A DNA stretch of 40,710 bases from sequence record NC_019710.1; one strand, given 5' to 3'. Below are positions 94 to 40,336 of the stretch, piece after piece (position 1 is the first letter of the stretch; the number at the start of each line of letters is the position of its first letter). The stretch is from Enterobacteria phage HK140. The notes beneath the pieces were generated by a model. It saw only the letters and a list, made by a program, of their open reading frames with translations. It was not told the DNA's origin and made no database searches. The position numbers and the translations under genes were made by a program.

Positions 94-579
94 ATGGCAG
101 ATAAACGAATCCGTTCCGACAGTTCGGCGGCAGCGGTTCAGGCCATGAAAAATGCAGCTGTGGACACCATCGATCCGCCGTCCCATGCAGGTTTGGAGAA
201 AAAAGCCGAACCATTCTGGCATGACAATATCAGATCGAAAGCTCTGGACAGCTGGACGCCTGCCGACCTTCTAGCCGCCGTAGAACTTGCTAATAATCAG
301 CTCTATATCACCGTTTTACGCAAGGATTTACGCAAAGAAGAGCGCATACGCGGGGAGGAGCGAGACGAAGGCCTTATAAAAGACCTCCGCAAGCAAATTG
401 TTGAGCTACAACGAACTATCCTGGCTCAGCGCCGCGACCTCCAGATCCACTCCCACGCAACCAACGGCGAAAGTCGCGACCAGAAGAAACGTAATCAGAA
501 CGATCGTGATGCACGGAATACCAAAAACGAGCATCAGGACCAGGACGATAACCTGATCGCCTTTCCCAAGCACGGATAA
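94..579 (+). CDS. Terminase small subunit (candidate)
   Basis: 161-aa ORF immediately upstream of the large terminase at the genome left end; RBS AAGGTG before the ATG; charged C-terminus. Confidence 0.55.
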   Translation: MADKRIRSDSSAAAVQAMKNAAVDTIDPPSHAGLEKKAEPFWHDNIRSKALDSWTPADLLAAVELANNQLYITVLRKDLRKEERIRGEERDEGLIKDLRKQIVELQRTILAQRRDLQIHSHATNGESRDQKKRNQNDRDARNTKNEHQDQDDNLIAFPKHG

Positions 580-18253: not shown

Positions 18254-18364
18254 TTGATCGTTTTTAGCGATCAATAACATAATATTGATCTATCCAATCA
18301 ATTATACCCACCAGAATTGTATTGGTATCGTCTAAGATACTGAATTCCTCTGGATACTATCAAA

Positions 18365-18598
18365 ATGAGAAAACTGATTATCTGCATGGCAGGCGCTGTC
18401 ATGCTTACAGGATGCGCTGGCGTAATTGAGAAACAGGAACCAGTTTGCAGCGGCACTGCAATCGTTGGCGGTCAGGAAACTACGGTTCAGATTTACGGTG
18501 TGCGTAAACAAAACAACCAGACGCAGTACCGGGCTGGATATCCTTTCAGCTGGCGCTGGGTAAGTGCGAATACATTTACCGAAACAACCTGCAAATAA
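18365..18598 (+). CDS. Small lipoprotein, candidate Cor-like superinfection exclusion protein
   Basis: 77 aa starting MRKLIICMAGAVMLTGC (lipobox); sits downstream of the J region where cor is found in phi80/N15-type phages; terminator follows. Confidence 0.5.
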   Translation: MRKLIICMAGAVMLTGCAGVIEKQEPVCSGTAIVGGQETTVQIYGVRKQNNQTQYRAGYPFSWRWVSANTFTETTCK

Positions 18599-20345: not shown

Positions 20346-20387
20346 AACCATCCCTCTCGCTTACTTGATCTCTGCAAATAAAAATAC

Positions 20388-20407
20388 TACTGTATTCATA
20401 TACAGTC
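20388..20407. promoter_or_regulatory. LexA (SOS) box TACTGTATTCATATACAGTC
   Basis: Perfect CTGT-N8-ACAG in the divergent intergenic region between dinI (-) and the impC-like/umuD' operon (+). Confidence 0.8.
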
Positions 20408-20430
20408 AATGTGTCATGAGGGCTATACTT

Positions 20431-20670
20431 ATGCCTCGTAAATCAGATATTCATGCAGCTTTTTTAGCCTCTATAGAACAGAATCAAAAGGGTTACCTTT
20501 GTCTCAATACAAATAAATTCATCAATAAGTTGCGCGAGAAGAGCTGGCATTTCAGCCAGGCGGATGCAAATACATGGATCGAGCGATACCAGCCGGACTT
20601 CGCCGATAAGACGACAAACGGCAGCCAGAACCGGTACTGGATCCTGCGTAACATGGGGAGGGTTTTCTAA
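20431..20670 (+). CDS. Small protein upstream of umuD', positionally ImpC-like
   Basis: 79 aa from the ATG at 20431 (RBS GAGGG); stop overlaps the umuD' start (TAATG). Confidence 0.4.
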   Translation: MPRKSDIHAAFLASIEQNQKGYLCLNTNKFINKLREKSWHFSQADANTWIERYQPDFADKTTNGSQNRYWILRNMGRVF

Positions 20671-21059
20671 TGGGCTTTCCTTCGCCGGCTACGGATTACG
20701 TTGAACAGCGTATATCGCTTGACGAGCGCATCATCACCAGGCCAGCGGCTACGTACTTTATGCGGGCCGGTGCAACGCATTACCGAGAAGGTATCCTCAA
20801 TGGTGCTTTGCTGGTTGTCGACGCGTCAATGTCTCCATGTGATGGTTCATTGCTGGTTTGCACAGATAGCGGTGAGTTTAGGATTAAGCGGTATCGCACA
20901 CACCCGCGGCCACACCTGGAAAACCTTGAGAACGGTAAACGGGAGAGTTTGCTAGATAAGGATGAGGTATCCGACACTTCGCGTCCGGTATTTGGGGTGA
21001 TCACGTATATCATCAACGACGCGCGGTCTGGTGAGTTTGATGACTACCCGCTGAAGTGA
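20670..21059 (+). CDS. UmuD'-like protein (S24 family), natively lacking the N-terminal cleavage segment
   Basis: 129 aa starting MGFPSPATDYVEQRI, matching UmuD from Gly25 (GFPSPAADYVEQRI); the position of the UmuD Ser nucleophile aligns to Thr/His. Confidence 0.8.
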   Translation: MGFPSPATDYVEQRISLDERIITRPAATYFMRAGATHYREGILNGALLVVDASMSPCDGSLLVCTDSGEFRIKRYRTHPRPHLENLENGKRESLLDKDEVSDTSRPVFGVITYIINDARSGEFDDYPLK

Positions 21060-29534: not shown

Positions 29535-29807
29535 TCATCTCGCCGTCAGTTGTTTTGATTTCCTGTAGCCTGCCGCGTAAATGGCTACGTTTGGCAGGCA
29601 AACACTTCCACTGCATTCATCAACTTTCTTGCAGCGAAGACTTCCGAGTGATGCTGCTTTGTCTGCTCTGACGCAACCAGAGAGCTTTAGCGCAATTTTT
29701 CGCGCCAGTCGCTGCTCTTGCATCGCCTGTTCACGTTGAGCCTGTCTGCGTGCTCTGCGGCGATTTCTGGCGTTATCGTCAGCCAGATATGTAATGACTA
29801 CTGTCAT
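29535..29807 (-). CDS. N: N-like antitermination protein
   Basis: 90 aa from the ATG at 29807 (RBS GGAGG); N-terminal arginine-rich motif DNARNRRRARRQAQREQ; first gene downstream of nutL. Confidence 0.6.
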   Translation of the reverse strand: MTVVITYLADDNARNRRRARRQAQREQAMQEQRLARKIALKLSGCVRADKAASLGSLRCKKVDECSGSVCLPNVAIYAAGYRKSKQLTAR

Positions 29808-30118
29808 GTTGACCTCCGATGAAACAACTTTGGAATTGATAGTGATTGCAAAGTGGTTTCTGGCCCCTCGAATTGAGGGGCAGAAAGAGCATCTCGCCAC
29901 CTAATAGGTCGATGCTCGGATCGAGAGATTTAATTAACCTCGGTTTTGAAGTTATGCATTCACATAAATCCTCCTGTTGCATGTGCAGCATTGGCTGTGT
30001 TTGGCGGCTGCATTTCGCCTATGGAATTGACTTTGGCGGTGACGCGCCGGGTGCTTATCTTCCGGTTGCCGTCGTGCAGCTGCACTTCACGTCACCCCAA
30101 AGCCAACTACTCTTTGGT

Positions 30119-30377: not shown

Positions 30378-30746
30378 TTAGTCAGCGAAGGTTAAGACGA
30401 GAATTACCTTAATGATGTCTGCTACAACAGACACGGCCATAGATAAACCAAAGACGATCCAAGCCATAGAGATGTCTTCACTACCATCGTATAGAGTTCC
30501 GTAATCACTGGTATAAGGCGTAAATGTCGCGCCTTGATACAATAGGTATAAGCTTGATCCATAGAGGATAAATGCAGATATCCCTTGTATTGCTATGATC
30601 ACCAGAATCATGAAACGAGCTGATCTATGCGCCCAAGCCTGGCTTATTTTTTCTGATAGAGATTTCGCAAGAAAAGCATGCGCTAAGCCGTAAATTGTCG
30701 AGATTGCCAACATCCCAAAAAAGCTTGCTATAGCGGTTCCAACCAT
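30378..30746 (-). CDS. Small three-helix membrane protein co-transcribed with cI (lambda rexAB position)
   Basis: 122 aa from the ATG at 30746 (RBS AAGGGG), or 129 aa from the TTG at 30767 overlapping the cI stop; three hydrophobic segments; lies between cI and OL. Confidence 0.6.
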   Translation of the reverse strand: MVGTAIASFFGMLAISTIYGLAHAFLAKSLSEKISQAWAHRSARFMILVIIAIQGISAFILYGSSLYLLYQGATFTPYTSDYGTLYDGSEDISMAWIVFGLSMAVSVVADIIKVILVLTFAD

Positions 30747-30763
30747 AAGCGCCCCTTGCGTGA

Positions 30764-31480
30764 TCAAACCAGCCTTAGTTTTGTCTCAATTGCAACGCCT
30801 ATAATCTTGCAGTTTCCATTGATTGGCACGAGAGGCCATGCAGGATTAAGTCCCTTGAGGTATTTATTTCCGCCGTCGATTATCAGCTTCTTGAATGTTG
30901 CTTCGTTAGAGTCAGAAAGTTTTGCTATGACCAAGCTGCCGTTGACCGCCTCCCTTCCGGTATCGAAAAGAACGAATGTTCCCTCTGGAATGCTTAACCC
31001 AACCGGTGCCGTCATTGAATCACCTTCCACTTTAAGCCAGAACGCATTACCTTGAATATGCGCGTCAGACTCAAGCCAAACATCTATGTCTTTAATGGTG
31101 TATGGTTCGCATGCTTCACACCACGAGCCAGCCTGGATACTGCTTAACACCGGATACCTCTTTCCTGCTCTGTATTCCCCTGCATACCTTACGTTGGCAT
31201 CGCTCTTAAGGCTTTCTGCCTGTTCTGCAACCTTGGCAGCAATTGACTGGCTAAAATCAGCAATTGAGACTTGCAACAACCGTGCAAAACCAGATGCAAC
31301 CTCAACGTTTAGCGCGTTTCTGCCATTAAGATAATGCCCTACCGCTCCTTGGGTGATACCCAGTTCATCAGCGATTGAGTATTGGGTTATTCCCAATTCT
31401 TTCTTTTTTGACTCATACAAAGCCTTAAGCCGCTTAGCGTCTTCGAGCTGTTCTGTCGTCAGTGATTTTTTATTTTCCAT
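30764..31480 (-). CDS. cI: CI repressor (HTH plus S24 autopeptidase)
   Basis: 238 aa; N-terminal HTH (QYSIADELGITQGAVGHYLNG), C-terminal GDSM serine motif and downstream Lys; divergent from cro across OR. Confidence 0.9.
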   Translation of the reverse strand: MENKKSLTTEQLEDAKRLKALYESKKKELGITQYSIADELGITQGAVGHYLNGRNALNVEVASGFARLLQVSIADFSQSIAAKVAEQAESLKSDANVRYAGEYRAGKRYPVLSSIQAGSWCEACEPYTIKDIDVWLESDAHIQGNAFWLKVEGDSMTAPVGLSIPEGTFVLFDTGREAVNGSLVIAKLSDSNEATFKKLIIDGGNKYLKGLNPAWPLVPINGNCKIIGVAIETKLRLV

Positions 31481-34087: not shown

Positions 34088-34160
34088 CCATCTACATTAC
34101 TGAGCTAATAACAGGCCTGCTGGTAATCGCAGGCCTTTTTATTTGGGGGAGAGGGAAGTC

Positions 34161-34601
34161 ATGAAAAAACTAACCTTTGAAATTCGATCTCCAGCACATC
34201 AGCAAAACGCTATTCACGCAGTACGGCAAATCCTTCCAGACCCAACCAAACCAATCGTAGTAACCATTCAGGAACGCAACCGCAGCTTAGACCAGAACCG
34301 AAAGCTTTGGGCTTGCCTTGGTGACGTCTCTCGTCAGGTTGAATGGCATGGTCGCTGGCTGGATGCAGAAAGCTGGAAGTGTGTGTTTACCGCAGCATTA
34401 AAGCAGCAGGATGTTGTTCCTAACCTTGCCGGGAATGGCTTTGTGGTAATAGGCCAGTCAACCAGCAGGATGTGTGTAAGCGAATTTGCGGAGCTATTAG
34501 AGCTTATACAGGCATTCGGTACAGAGCGTGGCGTTAAGTGGTCAGACGAAGCGCGACTGGCTCTGGAGTGGAAAGCGCGATGGGGAGATCGGGCTGCATG
34601 A
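34161..34601 (+). CDS. ninB: NinB (Orf-family recombination mediator)
   Basis: 146 aa from the ATG at 34161 (MKKLTFEIRSPAHQQNAIHA...), lambda NinB-like. Confidence 0.85.
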   Translation: MKKLTFEIRSPAHQQNAIHAVRQILPDPTKPIVVTIQERNRSLDQNRKLWACLGDVSRQVEWHGRWLDAESWKCVFTAALKQQDVVPNLAGNGFVVIGQSTSRMCVSEFAELLELIQAFGTERGVKWSDEARLALEWKARWGDRAA

Positions 34602-35125
34602 CTATCAAATCAAATACGCCAGCGCACGACAAGGACTGCTGGCAAACGCCGCTTTGGCTTTTTGATGCACTGGATATTGAGTTTGGATTCTGGCTGGATT
34701 CGGCAGCGAGCGACAAAAATGCTCTGTGTGCTCACTGGCTAACTGAGGCCGACGACGCGCTCAATTCTGAGTGGGTAAGCCACGGTGCAATCTGGAATAA
34801 CCCACCGTACAGCAATATCAGGCCGTGGGTGGAAAAAGCCGCTGAGCAGTGCATACAACAGCGACAGACGGTAGTGATGCTTGTGCCAGAGGATATGTCA
34901 GTCGGATGGTTCAGCAAGGCTCTGGAGAGTGTTGACGAAGTTCGTATTATCACTGATGGACGGATTAATTTTATCGAACCATCGACAGGGCTGGAGAAGA
35001 AGGGAAACAGCAAAGGTTCCATGCTGCTGATTTGGCGACCGTTCATCAGTCCTCGACGGATGTTTACTACCGTATCCAAAGCGGCATTGATGGCGATCGG
35101 GCAGGGCGTCAGGAGGGCGGCATGA
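34598..35125 (+). CDS. DNA N6-adenine methyltransferase (phage Dam type)
   Basis: 175 aa from the ATG at 34598 (ATGA overlap with ninB); NPPYS motif (the DPPY-type catalytic motif). Confidence 0.8.
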
Positions 35126-35304: not shown

Positions 35305-35471
35305 TTGACCCAAATCGAAGTTACGAACAACAAAGCGTCGAGCGGGCTTTAACGTGCGCTAACTGCGGTCAGAAGCTGCATGTGCTGGAAGTTCACGTGT
35401 GTGAGCACTGCTGCGCAGAACTGATGAGCGATCCGAATAGCTCAATGTACGAGGAAGAAGACGATGAATGA
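35301..35471 (+). CDS. ninF: NinF
   Basis: 56 aa from a GTG start ([38 protein letters not shown]...); below the ORF-track cutoff, translated by hand. Confidence 0.6.
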
Positions 35472-36186
35472 GTTAATAAATGGCAATGCCATCAAAATGA
35501 CAAGCATTGAAATCGCTGAGTTGGTGGGTAAGCGTCATGACAATGTGAAACGTACCATCGAAACGCTGGCTAAAAATGGTGTTATCCGGCTTCCTCAAAT
35601 TGAGGTTTCCGAAAGAATCAATAACTTAGGGTTCAATGTTCAGTACGAGCATTACGTCTTCGAAGGCGAACAAGGTAAGCGAGATAGTATTGTTGTTGTT
35701 GCCCAGTTGTCGCCAGAGTTCACCGCTCGCCTTGTTGACCGCTGGCGAGATCTTGAAGAAGCTGCGGTTAATATCCCCAAAACGCTACCGGAAGCGTTGC
35801 GCCTTGCTGCTGATCTTGCTGAGCAGAAAATGCAACTGGAAAACCAGCTTGCAATTGCCGCACCTAAAGTTGAGTTTGCCGATCGCGTTGGCGAGGCCAG
35901 CGGAATTTTGATTGGAAACTTTGCAAAGGTTGTCGGTATTGGTCCAAACAAACTGTTTGCGTGGATGCGCGATCACAAAATCCTTATTGCTTCAGGTTCC
36001 CGGCGCAATGTGCCAATGCAGGAATATATGGATCGCGGCTATTTCACAGTGAAAGAAACAGCGGTCAACACAAATCACGGAATACAGATATCGTTCACCA
36101 CAAAAATCACCGGGCGTGGTCAACAGTGGCTGACCAGAAAGCTGCTCGATAATGGAATGCTGAAAGTAACAGGGGAGGCTGCTTAA
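35464..36186 (+). CDS. Phage antirepressor (Rha-like N-terminus, KilA-C/ANT-like C-terminus)
   Basis: 240 aa; the N- and C-terminal regions resemble Rha and KilAC antirepressor domains by sequence character (from memory). Confidence 0.7.
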   Translation: MNELINGNAIKMTSIEIAELVGKRHDNVKRTIETLAKNGVIRLPQIEVSERINNLGFNVQYEHYVFEGEQGKRDSIVVVAQLSPEFTARLVDRWRDLEEAAVNIPKTLPEALRLAADLAEQKMQLENQLAIAAPKVEFADRVGEASGILIGNFAKVVGIGPNKLFAWMRDHKILIASGSRRNVPMQEYMDRGYFTVKETAVNTNHGIQISFTTKITGRGQQWLTRKLLDNGMLKVTGEAA

Positions 36187-36476
36187 TGGCTAATCTACGC
36201 AAAGAAGCACGCGGCAGAGAATGCCAGGTACGTATTTACGGCGTATGCAATGGTAATCCTGAAACTACAGTTCTGGCACATTACCGGATGGCTGGAATTT
36301 GCGGAACGGGAATGAAGCCTGACGACCTGATCGGCGCATGGGCTTGTAGCGCGTGTCACGATGAAATCGACCGACGCACCCATAATCTCGACAACAAAGA
36401 CGCCAAACTTTACCACCTCGAAGGCGTGATCAGGACGCAGGCGATACTGCTGAAGGAGGGGAAGATTAAGCCATGA
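36186..36476 (+). CDS. DUF1364 (YbcO-like) protein
   Basis: 96 aa; MANLRKEARGRECQVRIYGVCNGNPETTVLAHYR with Cys/His cluster, YbcO-like from memory. Confidence 0.6.
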   Translation: MANLRKEARGRECQVRIYGVCNGNPETTVLAHYRMAGICGTGMKPDDLIGAWACSACHDEIDRRTHNLDNKDAKLYHLEGVIRTQAILLKEGKIKP

Positions 36477-36835
36477 ACGAATATCAGTTTGTGCTTCCAT
36501 ACCCGCCGTCGGTGAACACCTACTGGCGAAGACGGGGAAGCCAATACTACATCAGCGCTAAAGGCCAGAAATACCGAAAAGATGTACAGCAAATAATCCG
36601 CCAACTCAAGTTAGACATTTTCACCAAATCACGACTCCGCATCAAAGTCATCGCAGACGTTCCAGACTCCCGCCGCCGCGACCTCGACAACATCCTGAAA
36701 GGTTTACTCGACTCCCTTATCCACGCCGGATTTGCGGAAGACGACGAGCAATTCGATGACATTCGTGTAATTCGTGGTGTGAAAGTACCAGGCGGAAGGC
36801 TTGGAATAAAAATCACCGAACTGGAGAACGCATGA
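36473..36835 (+). CDS. rusA: RusA Holliday junction resolvase
   Basis: 120 aa; LPYPPSVNTYWRRRG, DVPDSRRRDLDNILKGLLDSL and GGRLGIKITE align with E. coli RusA. Confidence 0.85.
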   Translation: MNEYQFVLPYPPSVNTYWRRRGSQYYISAKGQKYRKDVQQIIRQLKLDIFTKSRLRIKVIADVPDSRRRDLDNILKGLLDSLIHAGFAEDDEQFDDIRVIRGVKVPGGRLGIKITELENA

Positions 36836-39603: not shown

Positions 39604-39994
39604 TCATTACAAAGCCCATCTACGGGTGGGCTTGATAATGAAACCGGAATTTATTCTTGGCAACCAGTTACGGCAGTACCACGAAACAACCCAAGCCAGA
39701 AAGTGTGGAAATAACACTGGCAGCCACTGAAAGATAAACCTCCTGCCTTATGGCAAAAAAGATTCTTTGTGGTGGCGGACTGATGGAAAGACATCGGTTA
39801 TTGCAGAGACCATTCAATGAGTGGTCTCGACAATGGCTTATACCCTACACGGGATAACTTAACTGATATCCCTTTTAACGGATAAACGGAGCCAACAATG
39901 GCAGAGATTATTCCCATGACTGAAGAACAGAAATTCCAGTTAGAGATTTACAAACTGGTCATGAACCAGAACGCCGCCGTGCATGGAGACTGGC

Positions 39995-40336
39995 ATGAAC
40001 AAAGAGCTCCGCGTATATGGCAGCCGATGGGATAAGGCCCGTCTGCGTTTTCTCCAGCAGCACCCACTGTGTGTGATGTGCGAGCAGCAGGGGCGCATAA
40101 CACCAGCAACGGTGGTCGACCATATCGTGCCCCACAAACTGAAAGATGCGCTTAAGTCAGGTAACCCTCTGGCCATATCGAAAGCACAGCTCCTGTTCTG
40201 GAGTAAAGAGAACTGGCAGCCACTGTGCAAAGCGCATCATGACTCAACGAAACAGAGAATGGAGAAGAGCGGCGCGGTAATAGGTTGTGATGCCAACGGC
40301 TACCCGCTCGATCCTGCGTCTCACTGGAGCACGTAA
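39995..40336 (+). CDS. HNH endonuclease (terminase-associated type)
   Basis: 113 aa from the ATG at 39995 (RBS GGAGA); Cys pairs CVMC...C and CKAHHD with VDHIVPH, an HNH fold; located just before the genome right end. Confidence 0.8.
   Translation: MNKELRVYGSRWDKARLRFLQQHPLCVMCEQQGRITPATVVDHIVPHKLKDALKSGNPLAISKAQLLFWSKENWQPLCKAHHDSTKQRMEKSGAVIGCDANGYPLDPASHWST

Follow-up and report, generated by a model that had tools for sequence, protein, structure and literature searches.

A dam cassette in the nin region of phage HK140: an orphan adenine methyltransferase with reported GATC specificity

Between ninB and ninE, where lambda has ninC and ninD, Enterobacteria phage HK140 has a gene whose product carries a catalytic motif of N6-adenine methyltransferases. 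What kind of enzyme is this, how does it relate to the Dam methyltransferase of the host, and what could a phage gain by duplicating the GATC methylation that its host already performs? The original prediction, made from the letters of the DNA alone, was of an orphan Dam-type enzyme that might either protect phage DNA or alter host gene regulation. We followed it up in sequence record NC_019710.1, all 40,710 nucleotides of which are referred to below as the window. We are highly confident of the reading as a whole, which is that of a lambdoid dam cassette encoding an orphan GATC-specific N6-adenine methyltransferase, predicted to be expressed as a delayed-early gene and to top up the GATC methylation of phage DNA. 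As a discovery the gene carries little weight, since the same enzyme was reported in 2001 and is named by the NCBI annotation rules. The question of benefit is general to the cassette and is not one of HK140 in particular; how so small an enzyme recognises GATC is likewise a question about the whole family.

The ninB-ninE slot

By its appearance, the window is a whole lambdoid phage of the HK97/HK022 kind. The left arm shares 97% identity with mEpX2 and HK022, and the right arm is mosaic, with relationships to E212, mEpX1/2 and HK620. Lambda-type O, P, ren, ninB, ninE, ninF, ninH and Q are all present, and along the DNA the order is O, P, ren, tR2, ninB, dam, ninE, ninF, ... ninH, Q. Rfam and tRNA scans of the window found nothing.

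The reading frame of dam comprises 175 codons (Table 1); it starts with the ATG at 34598-34600 and stops with the TGA at 35123-35125, exactly where it had been predicted. The stop codon of ninB (34599-34601) overlaps the dam ATG as ATGA, and the dam TGA overlaps the ATG of ninE (35122-35124), again as ATGA. Reading of the sequence places the Shine-Dalgarno-like GGGGAG 10 nucleotides 5' of the dam ATG, within the end of ninB, and a further element, AGGAGG at 35111-35116, ahead of ninE; Pfam identifies the flanking genes as ninB and ninE. The expected overlaps are thus there at both ends, and through them the translation of dam is probably coupled to that of both neighbours. A longer version of the reading frame, starting from GTG 34538, was rejected, as the matches to both family profiles set in at residues 2-4 of the protein that starts at ATG 34598, and it is this ATG that has the Shine-Dalgarno element and the ATGA overlap. 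We also considered the GATC at 34587-34590, between the Shine-Dalgarno element and the dam ATG, as a site of self-regulation and dropped it, because VT2-Sakai and lambda both lack it at this junction.

Table 1. Features of the dam cassette and its surroundings (positions in the window)
Feature	Position	Strand	Evidence
tR2-type intrinsic terminator upstream of ninB	34113..34146	+	Terminator scan: 8-bp stem with 6 GC pairs, T-run; identical to lambda
ninB (orf), recombination mediator, 146 aa	34161..34601	+	PF05772, 3.5e-54; nearly identical to lambda ninB
Shine-Dalgarno-like GGGGAG	34582..34587	+	Sequence reading; same element before ninC in lambda
dam, orphan phage N6-adenine DNA methyltransferase, 175 aa	34598..35125	+	PF05869, TIGR01712, VT2-Sakai identity, PADLOC
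Motif-I-like FWLDSAA, residues 31-37	34688..34708	+	Invariant alignment columns; putative AdoMet-binding acidic loop
Catalytic motif IV NPPYS, residues 68-72	34799..34813	+	Sequence reading; invariant in 31 homologues
ninE, 60 aa	35122..35304	+	PF05322, 1.9e-42; lambda homology resumes here

Against lambda, the region aligns almost without a mismatch across tR2 and ninB as far as the ATGA; the identity then disappears for the length of the dam insert and is back within the first few codons of ninE. Because identity breaks and resumes at these points, dam replaces exactly the lambda genes ninC and ninD, as had been predicted. The two alternatives have the same slot, the same upstream Shine-Dalgarno element, the same ATGA junction with ninB and the same downstream ninE, but ninC plus ninD (1.0 kb) are unrelated in sequence and function to dam (0.53 kb); the lambda record annotates ninC as a phosphoadenosine-phosphosulfate-reductase-like protein. 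The boundary GGGCTGCATGA is common to HK140 and VT2-Sakai despite their different ninB alleles, and the joints are exact at gene boundaries in comparison with both lambda and VT2-Sakai. This pattern is that of the usual module exchange at conserved gene boundaries. The features expected of a lambdoid nin module are all found here, namely a location between P/ren and Q, on the 3' side of tR2, mosaic joints at gene boundaries and the ATGA packing that has been described for nin genes (PMC8022706). We conclude that dam is one interchangeable filler of the ninB-ninE slot and a standard lambdoid cassette. Among sequenced phages it is also the commoner filler, with 242 phage records against 69 that have any match to lambda ninC (17 of them full-length).

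The remaining nin region is mosaic with respect to lambda. In place of lambda ninG (Rap) there are a Rha/KilAC antirepressor-like gene (35464..36186), YbcO (36186..36476) and RusA (36473..36835), and the ninI phosphatase is absent between ninH and Q.

The protein and its relatives

Judged by profile matches, the assignment of the reading frame to the methyltransferases is far beyond chance. The protein matches PF05869, "DNA N-6-adenine-methyltransferase (Dam)", with E = 6.4e-65 (218.4 bits against a cutoff of 28.1), and the match spans residues 4-169 of 175 and model positions 1-167 of 169. With the NCBIfam equivalog TIGR01712, "phage N-6-adenine-methyltransferase", the values are E = 9.7e-80 and 265.9 bits (cutoff 97.05), so that full-length matches above curated cut-offs are found with both profiles. 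The PHROG family phrog_111, "DNA methyltransferase", matches at 8.6e-88, and the orphan-methyltransferase models of PADLOC match at 3.6e-19 and 3.5e-17.

The predicted catalytic motif, NPPYS, is present. We aligned the protein with 30 homologues (31 sequences, down to 59% identity), and N68, P69, P70, Y71 and S72 are invariant throughout. So are F31, L33, D34 and A36 of an upstream segment, FxLDxA (residues 31-36), which we infer to be the AdoMet-binding acidic loop, D34 included. In the N-terminal part of the same alignment a TP dipeptide is conserved, with a near-invariant W and a near-invariant Q ahead of it. The protein therefore has both the (D/N)PPY motif IV and the conserved acidic segment upstream of it that characterise the family, and both align with the phage T1 enzyme discussed below.

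The fold is that of a small single-domain Rossmann-type methyltransferase with no separate target-recognition domain. The matches are moderate only, each confined to some 130 residues of an enzyme that is far larger, and the dam protein is essentially a bare catalytic domain. Searches of the PDB by sequence and by profile detected no solved structure for the protein or for PF05869. The AlphaFold2 model is moderately confident (mean pLDDT 74); its weakest stretch, residues 31-70, lies between the putative AdoMet-binding segment and NPPY, with pLDDT below 65 (block means 47-64).

The term "Dam-type", which the original prediction used, fits the reported specificity of the enzyme (see below) and does not fit its family, which is PF05869 and not PF02086. 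With E. coli Dam, T4 Dam and DpnM, the D12 class covered by PF02086, the likeness consists of the reported N6-methyladenine in GATC, a Rossmann methyltransferase fold and a (D/N)PPY motif. In a Pfam scan, PF02086 gave no match to the dam protein at E <= 0.01, and the protein thus falls outside that family by sequence. An E. coli Dam reference sequence scores 5e-81 on PF02086, and BLASTP of the phage protein against the same reference gives E = 7.5. Nor was there close structural similarity to E. coli Dam, T4 Dam or DpnM, including their DNA-recognition domain inserted between motifs. By sequence comparison, then, the phage protein would be a functional analogue of host Dam and not an orthologue, there being no detectable sequence relation between the two.

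Another known group, MT-A70, comprises the beta-class GATC methyltransferases of some phages and transposons as well as METTL3/14/4. The dam protein has no MT-A70 Pfam match and does not belong there; in Foldseek, METTL4 and METTL3-14 match it weakly (E = 0.014 to 0.3, TM-score at most 0.33). A relative is the methyltransferase of coliphage T1 (YP_003925), which is a member of the same family, PF05869, and is 33% identical over 158 residues (E = 2e-26). Its WxTP, LDxAAS and NPPYS motifs align with those of the dam protein, and it is likewise an orphan. It differs in its length of 237 amino acids, with an N-terminal extension and an insertion, in belonging to a virulent phage and in being encoded outside any nin region. 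The note in the T1 record (YP_003925) also names the Dam of Haemophilus phages HP1/HP2.

The closest counterpart is identical. All 175 residues of the dam protein are shared with orf32 of phage VT2-Sakai (NP_050531), which is M.EcoVT2Dam. This enzyme "is known to target 5'-GATC-3'" in the words of a methylome study (PMC6602927), which cites Radlinska and Bujnicki 2001 (PMID 11720311) for the statement; the enzyme is reported to have been cloned from a Shiga-toxin phage in 2001. Because of the 100% identity, the reported specificity of M.EcoVT2Dam, as relayed in PMC6602927, can be carried over to the HK140 protein, which would then methylate the adenine in GATC. In VT2-Sakai, too, the gene of this reportedly GATC-specific enzyme is an orphan and sits in the same slot between ninB and ninE, with the same junction at its start. 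The two dam genes have only synonymous nucleotide differences, and what sets them apart is the genetic background: HK140 has the lambda allele of ninB in an HK97/HK022-like phage without stx, whereas VT2-Sakai has a different ninB allele. The dam product of the Stx phage Phi24B has been described as 100% identical to those of VT2-Sakai (NP_050531) and Min27, and as 99% identical to that of HK97 (PMC3342100); the HK97 protein, AAF31137, is also reported to be 99% identical to M.EcoVT2Dam.

The gene is widespread. In tblastn searches, 199 phage records encode a protein at least 99% identical in amino acids to that of HK140, and a member of the family is found in 1906 phage records, among them T1-like virulent phages and phages of Klebsiella, Vibrio, Lactococcus and Gordonia. 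A copy with at least 95% nucleotide identity is present in 242 phage records; among complete E. coli genomes, 1566 of 5426 (about 29%) have one. RefSeq labels these copies "phage N-6-adenine-methyltransferase", and NinB and NinE flank them. The HK140 gene is, in short, an ordinary phage gene, already described and very common; it is not new.

The predicted orphan status held up as well. A PADLOC scan of 55 proteins of the window gave no match to a restriction endonuclease model; apart from one marginal, unrelated hit, the only models to match were methyltransferase models, and all of these hit the dam protein. No defence system turned up in the window either. Pfam, run on 20 accessory proteins, found no restriction enzyme among them either; what it found were an integrase, RecT, SieB, the N-type antiterminator, a cI-type repressor, a UmuD-like peptidase, Ead/Ea22, DUF551 and HNH proteins. 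Since no scanned protein of the window matches a restriction endonuclease model, we regard dam as an orphan methyltransferase. It is not part of a Type II restriction-modification system, as the window holds no endonuclease partner and the flanking genes are ninB and ninE.

What the enzyme could do for the phage

The dam gene lies downstream of a tR2 terminator identical to that of lambda, in the rightward operon between P/ren and Q, and an N-type antiterminator gene is present at 29535..29900 on the minus strand (PF25694). The pR transcript would therefore reach dam by N-type antitermination through tR2, making it a delayed-early gene. In Phi24B, dam is expressed in connection with the lytic cycle, and induction alters its expression significantly (PMC3342100). 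The enzyme would act during lytic growth on replicating phage DNA, where the GATC sites of the genome, 129 in number, would be its substrates; with AdoMet as methyl donor it would produce N6-methyladenine in GATC, with no restriction partner involved.

The purpose could be to finish the methylation of GATC sites that is left partial when host Dam becomes limiting during fast phage replication. We find this the most economical role because Dam sites are known to be undermethylated in the virion DNA of lambda and P22, which may reflect replication that is too fast for the host enzyme (PMC8022706). The progeny DNA would then be fully modified and safe from methylation-sensitive nucleases that cut GATC, and the progeny would also be spared the consequences of hemi- or unmethylated GATC. 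A role in protecting phage DNA, one of the two functions originally proposed, is plausible. No knockout phenotype for the dam cassette was found in the searchable literature. In a dam+ host the phage enzyme duplicates the activity of the host, so its benefit may be small or conditional.

The other function originally proposed, alteration of host gene regulation, has a close relative in the idea that the enzyme methylates GATC in control regions of phage or host, and so stabilises lysogeny or times the lytic programme instead of protecting DNA. The authors of the Phi24B study suggested that the phage Dam may supplement host Dam, and read its expression as possibly supporting lysogeny; a study that they cite is described there as having found host Dam essential for stable lysogeny of the Stx phage 933W (PMC3342100). 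Three closely spaced GATC sites, which overlap a promoter-like site ahead of the cor moron of HK140, also speak for such a role. However, the position of dam behind tR2 in a delayed-early operon means that it should be silent in a repressed prophage, and its expression in Phi24B follows the lytic cycle. The host Dam of E. coli, moreover, already methylates about 99.9% of its own GATC sites (PMC6602927, Table 4), and lysogens with the dam gene show no extra methylation motif (PMC6602927). Because a prophage should not transcribe dam and the host has methylated nearly all GATC sites anyway, an effect on host gene regulation is unlikely, and we would give the regulatory idea in its wider form no better than a minor chance.

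It is also conceivable that dam is neutral or near-neutral cargo, a slot filler kept by modular recombination at conserved gene boundaries and of no measurable use in dam+ E. coli. Published work describes the nin genes as nonessential (PMC8022706), the contents of the slot vary between ninC plus ninD in lambda and dam in HK140, the GGGCTGCATGA boundary is kept even next to the different ninB allele of VT2-Sakai, and the activity is redundant with that of host Dam. Against this stand the strong conservation and wide spread of the gene among phage records and E. coli genomes, its occurrence in more phage records than lambda ninC and the distribution of the family over the phages of many hosts, virulent T1-like phages included. 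Conservation and spread of the family argue for selection, and we think neutrality quite improbable. The least probable of the alternatives, to which we give hardly any credence, is that the protein has a relaxed or non-GATC specificity, in the manner of M.EcoGI and M.EcoGII, prophage adenine methyltransferases that are non-specific. It is true that a protein of 175 amino acids with no separate target-recognition domain has no solved structure that would explain how it reads GATC, and that the target comes from a secondary citation; but the identical M.EcoVT2Dam is stated to target GATC in that citing study of STEC methylomes, which lists enzymes of the M.EcoGI/GII type separately from the copies of M.EcoVT2Dam (PMC6602927). 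We therefore keep to topping-up of phage GATC methylation during lytic growth as the preferred reading.

GATC sites and other parts of the genome

The number of GATC sites in the window is below that in dinucleotide-preserving shuffles (168.8 +/- 11.5), and 100 of 100 shuffles had more. The depletion is modest.

Three of the sites (18256, 18269 and 18287), all within 35 bp of one another, lie upstream of cor, a superinfection-exclusion lipoprotein moron at 18365..18598 on the plus strand (phrog_1119, 7e-37). They overlap a promoter-like site at 18254-18283 (TTGATC, an 18-nucleotide spacer and CATAAT) as well as the short palindromes TTGATCG...CGATCAA and ATTGAT...ATCAAT. Control that is sensitive to Dam usually shows itself by GATC sites clustered in a promoter, and this cluster deserves attention in a phage that has its own GATC methylase. 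The segment 18200-18660, which contains cor, has 100% nucleotide identity to mEp213, mEp043 and mEp237.

At the right end of the window, a protein with an HNH motif is encoded at 39983..40336 (PF01844, a weak match at 1.3e-05); it is the only HNH protein. At the left end, the reading frame at 94..579 lies in the position of a small terminase gene. Such a layout is of the HK97 type, where an HNH endonuclease works together with the terminase, and it suggests that the window is a complete cos-to-cos phage genome.

Two tightly packed plus-strand genes occupy 20365-21059, between the tail-fibre gene and the integrase gene. The first encodes 101 amino acids of unknown function (phrog_3893) and the second a UmuD-like S24 peptidase of 129 amino acids (phrog_811, 1.8e-48; PF00717, 1.4e-06), and the pair may be a moron related to SOS mutagenesis. 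On the minus strand, at 30378-30767, a gene for 129 amino acids lies just 3' of the cI-type repressor gene (30764..31480), whose end it overlaps, in the position of lambda rexAB. Its product has no Pfam match and belongs to a PHROG of unknown function only (phrog_6534, 7.5e-79); the gene is a candidate for an exclusion or defence gene expressed from the prophage.
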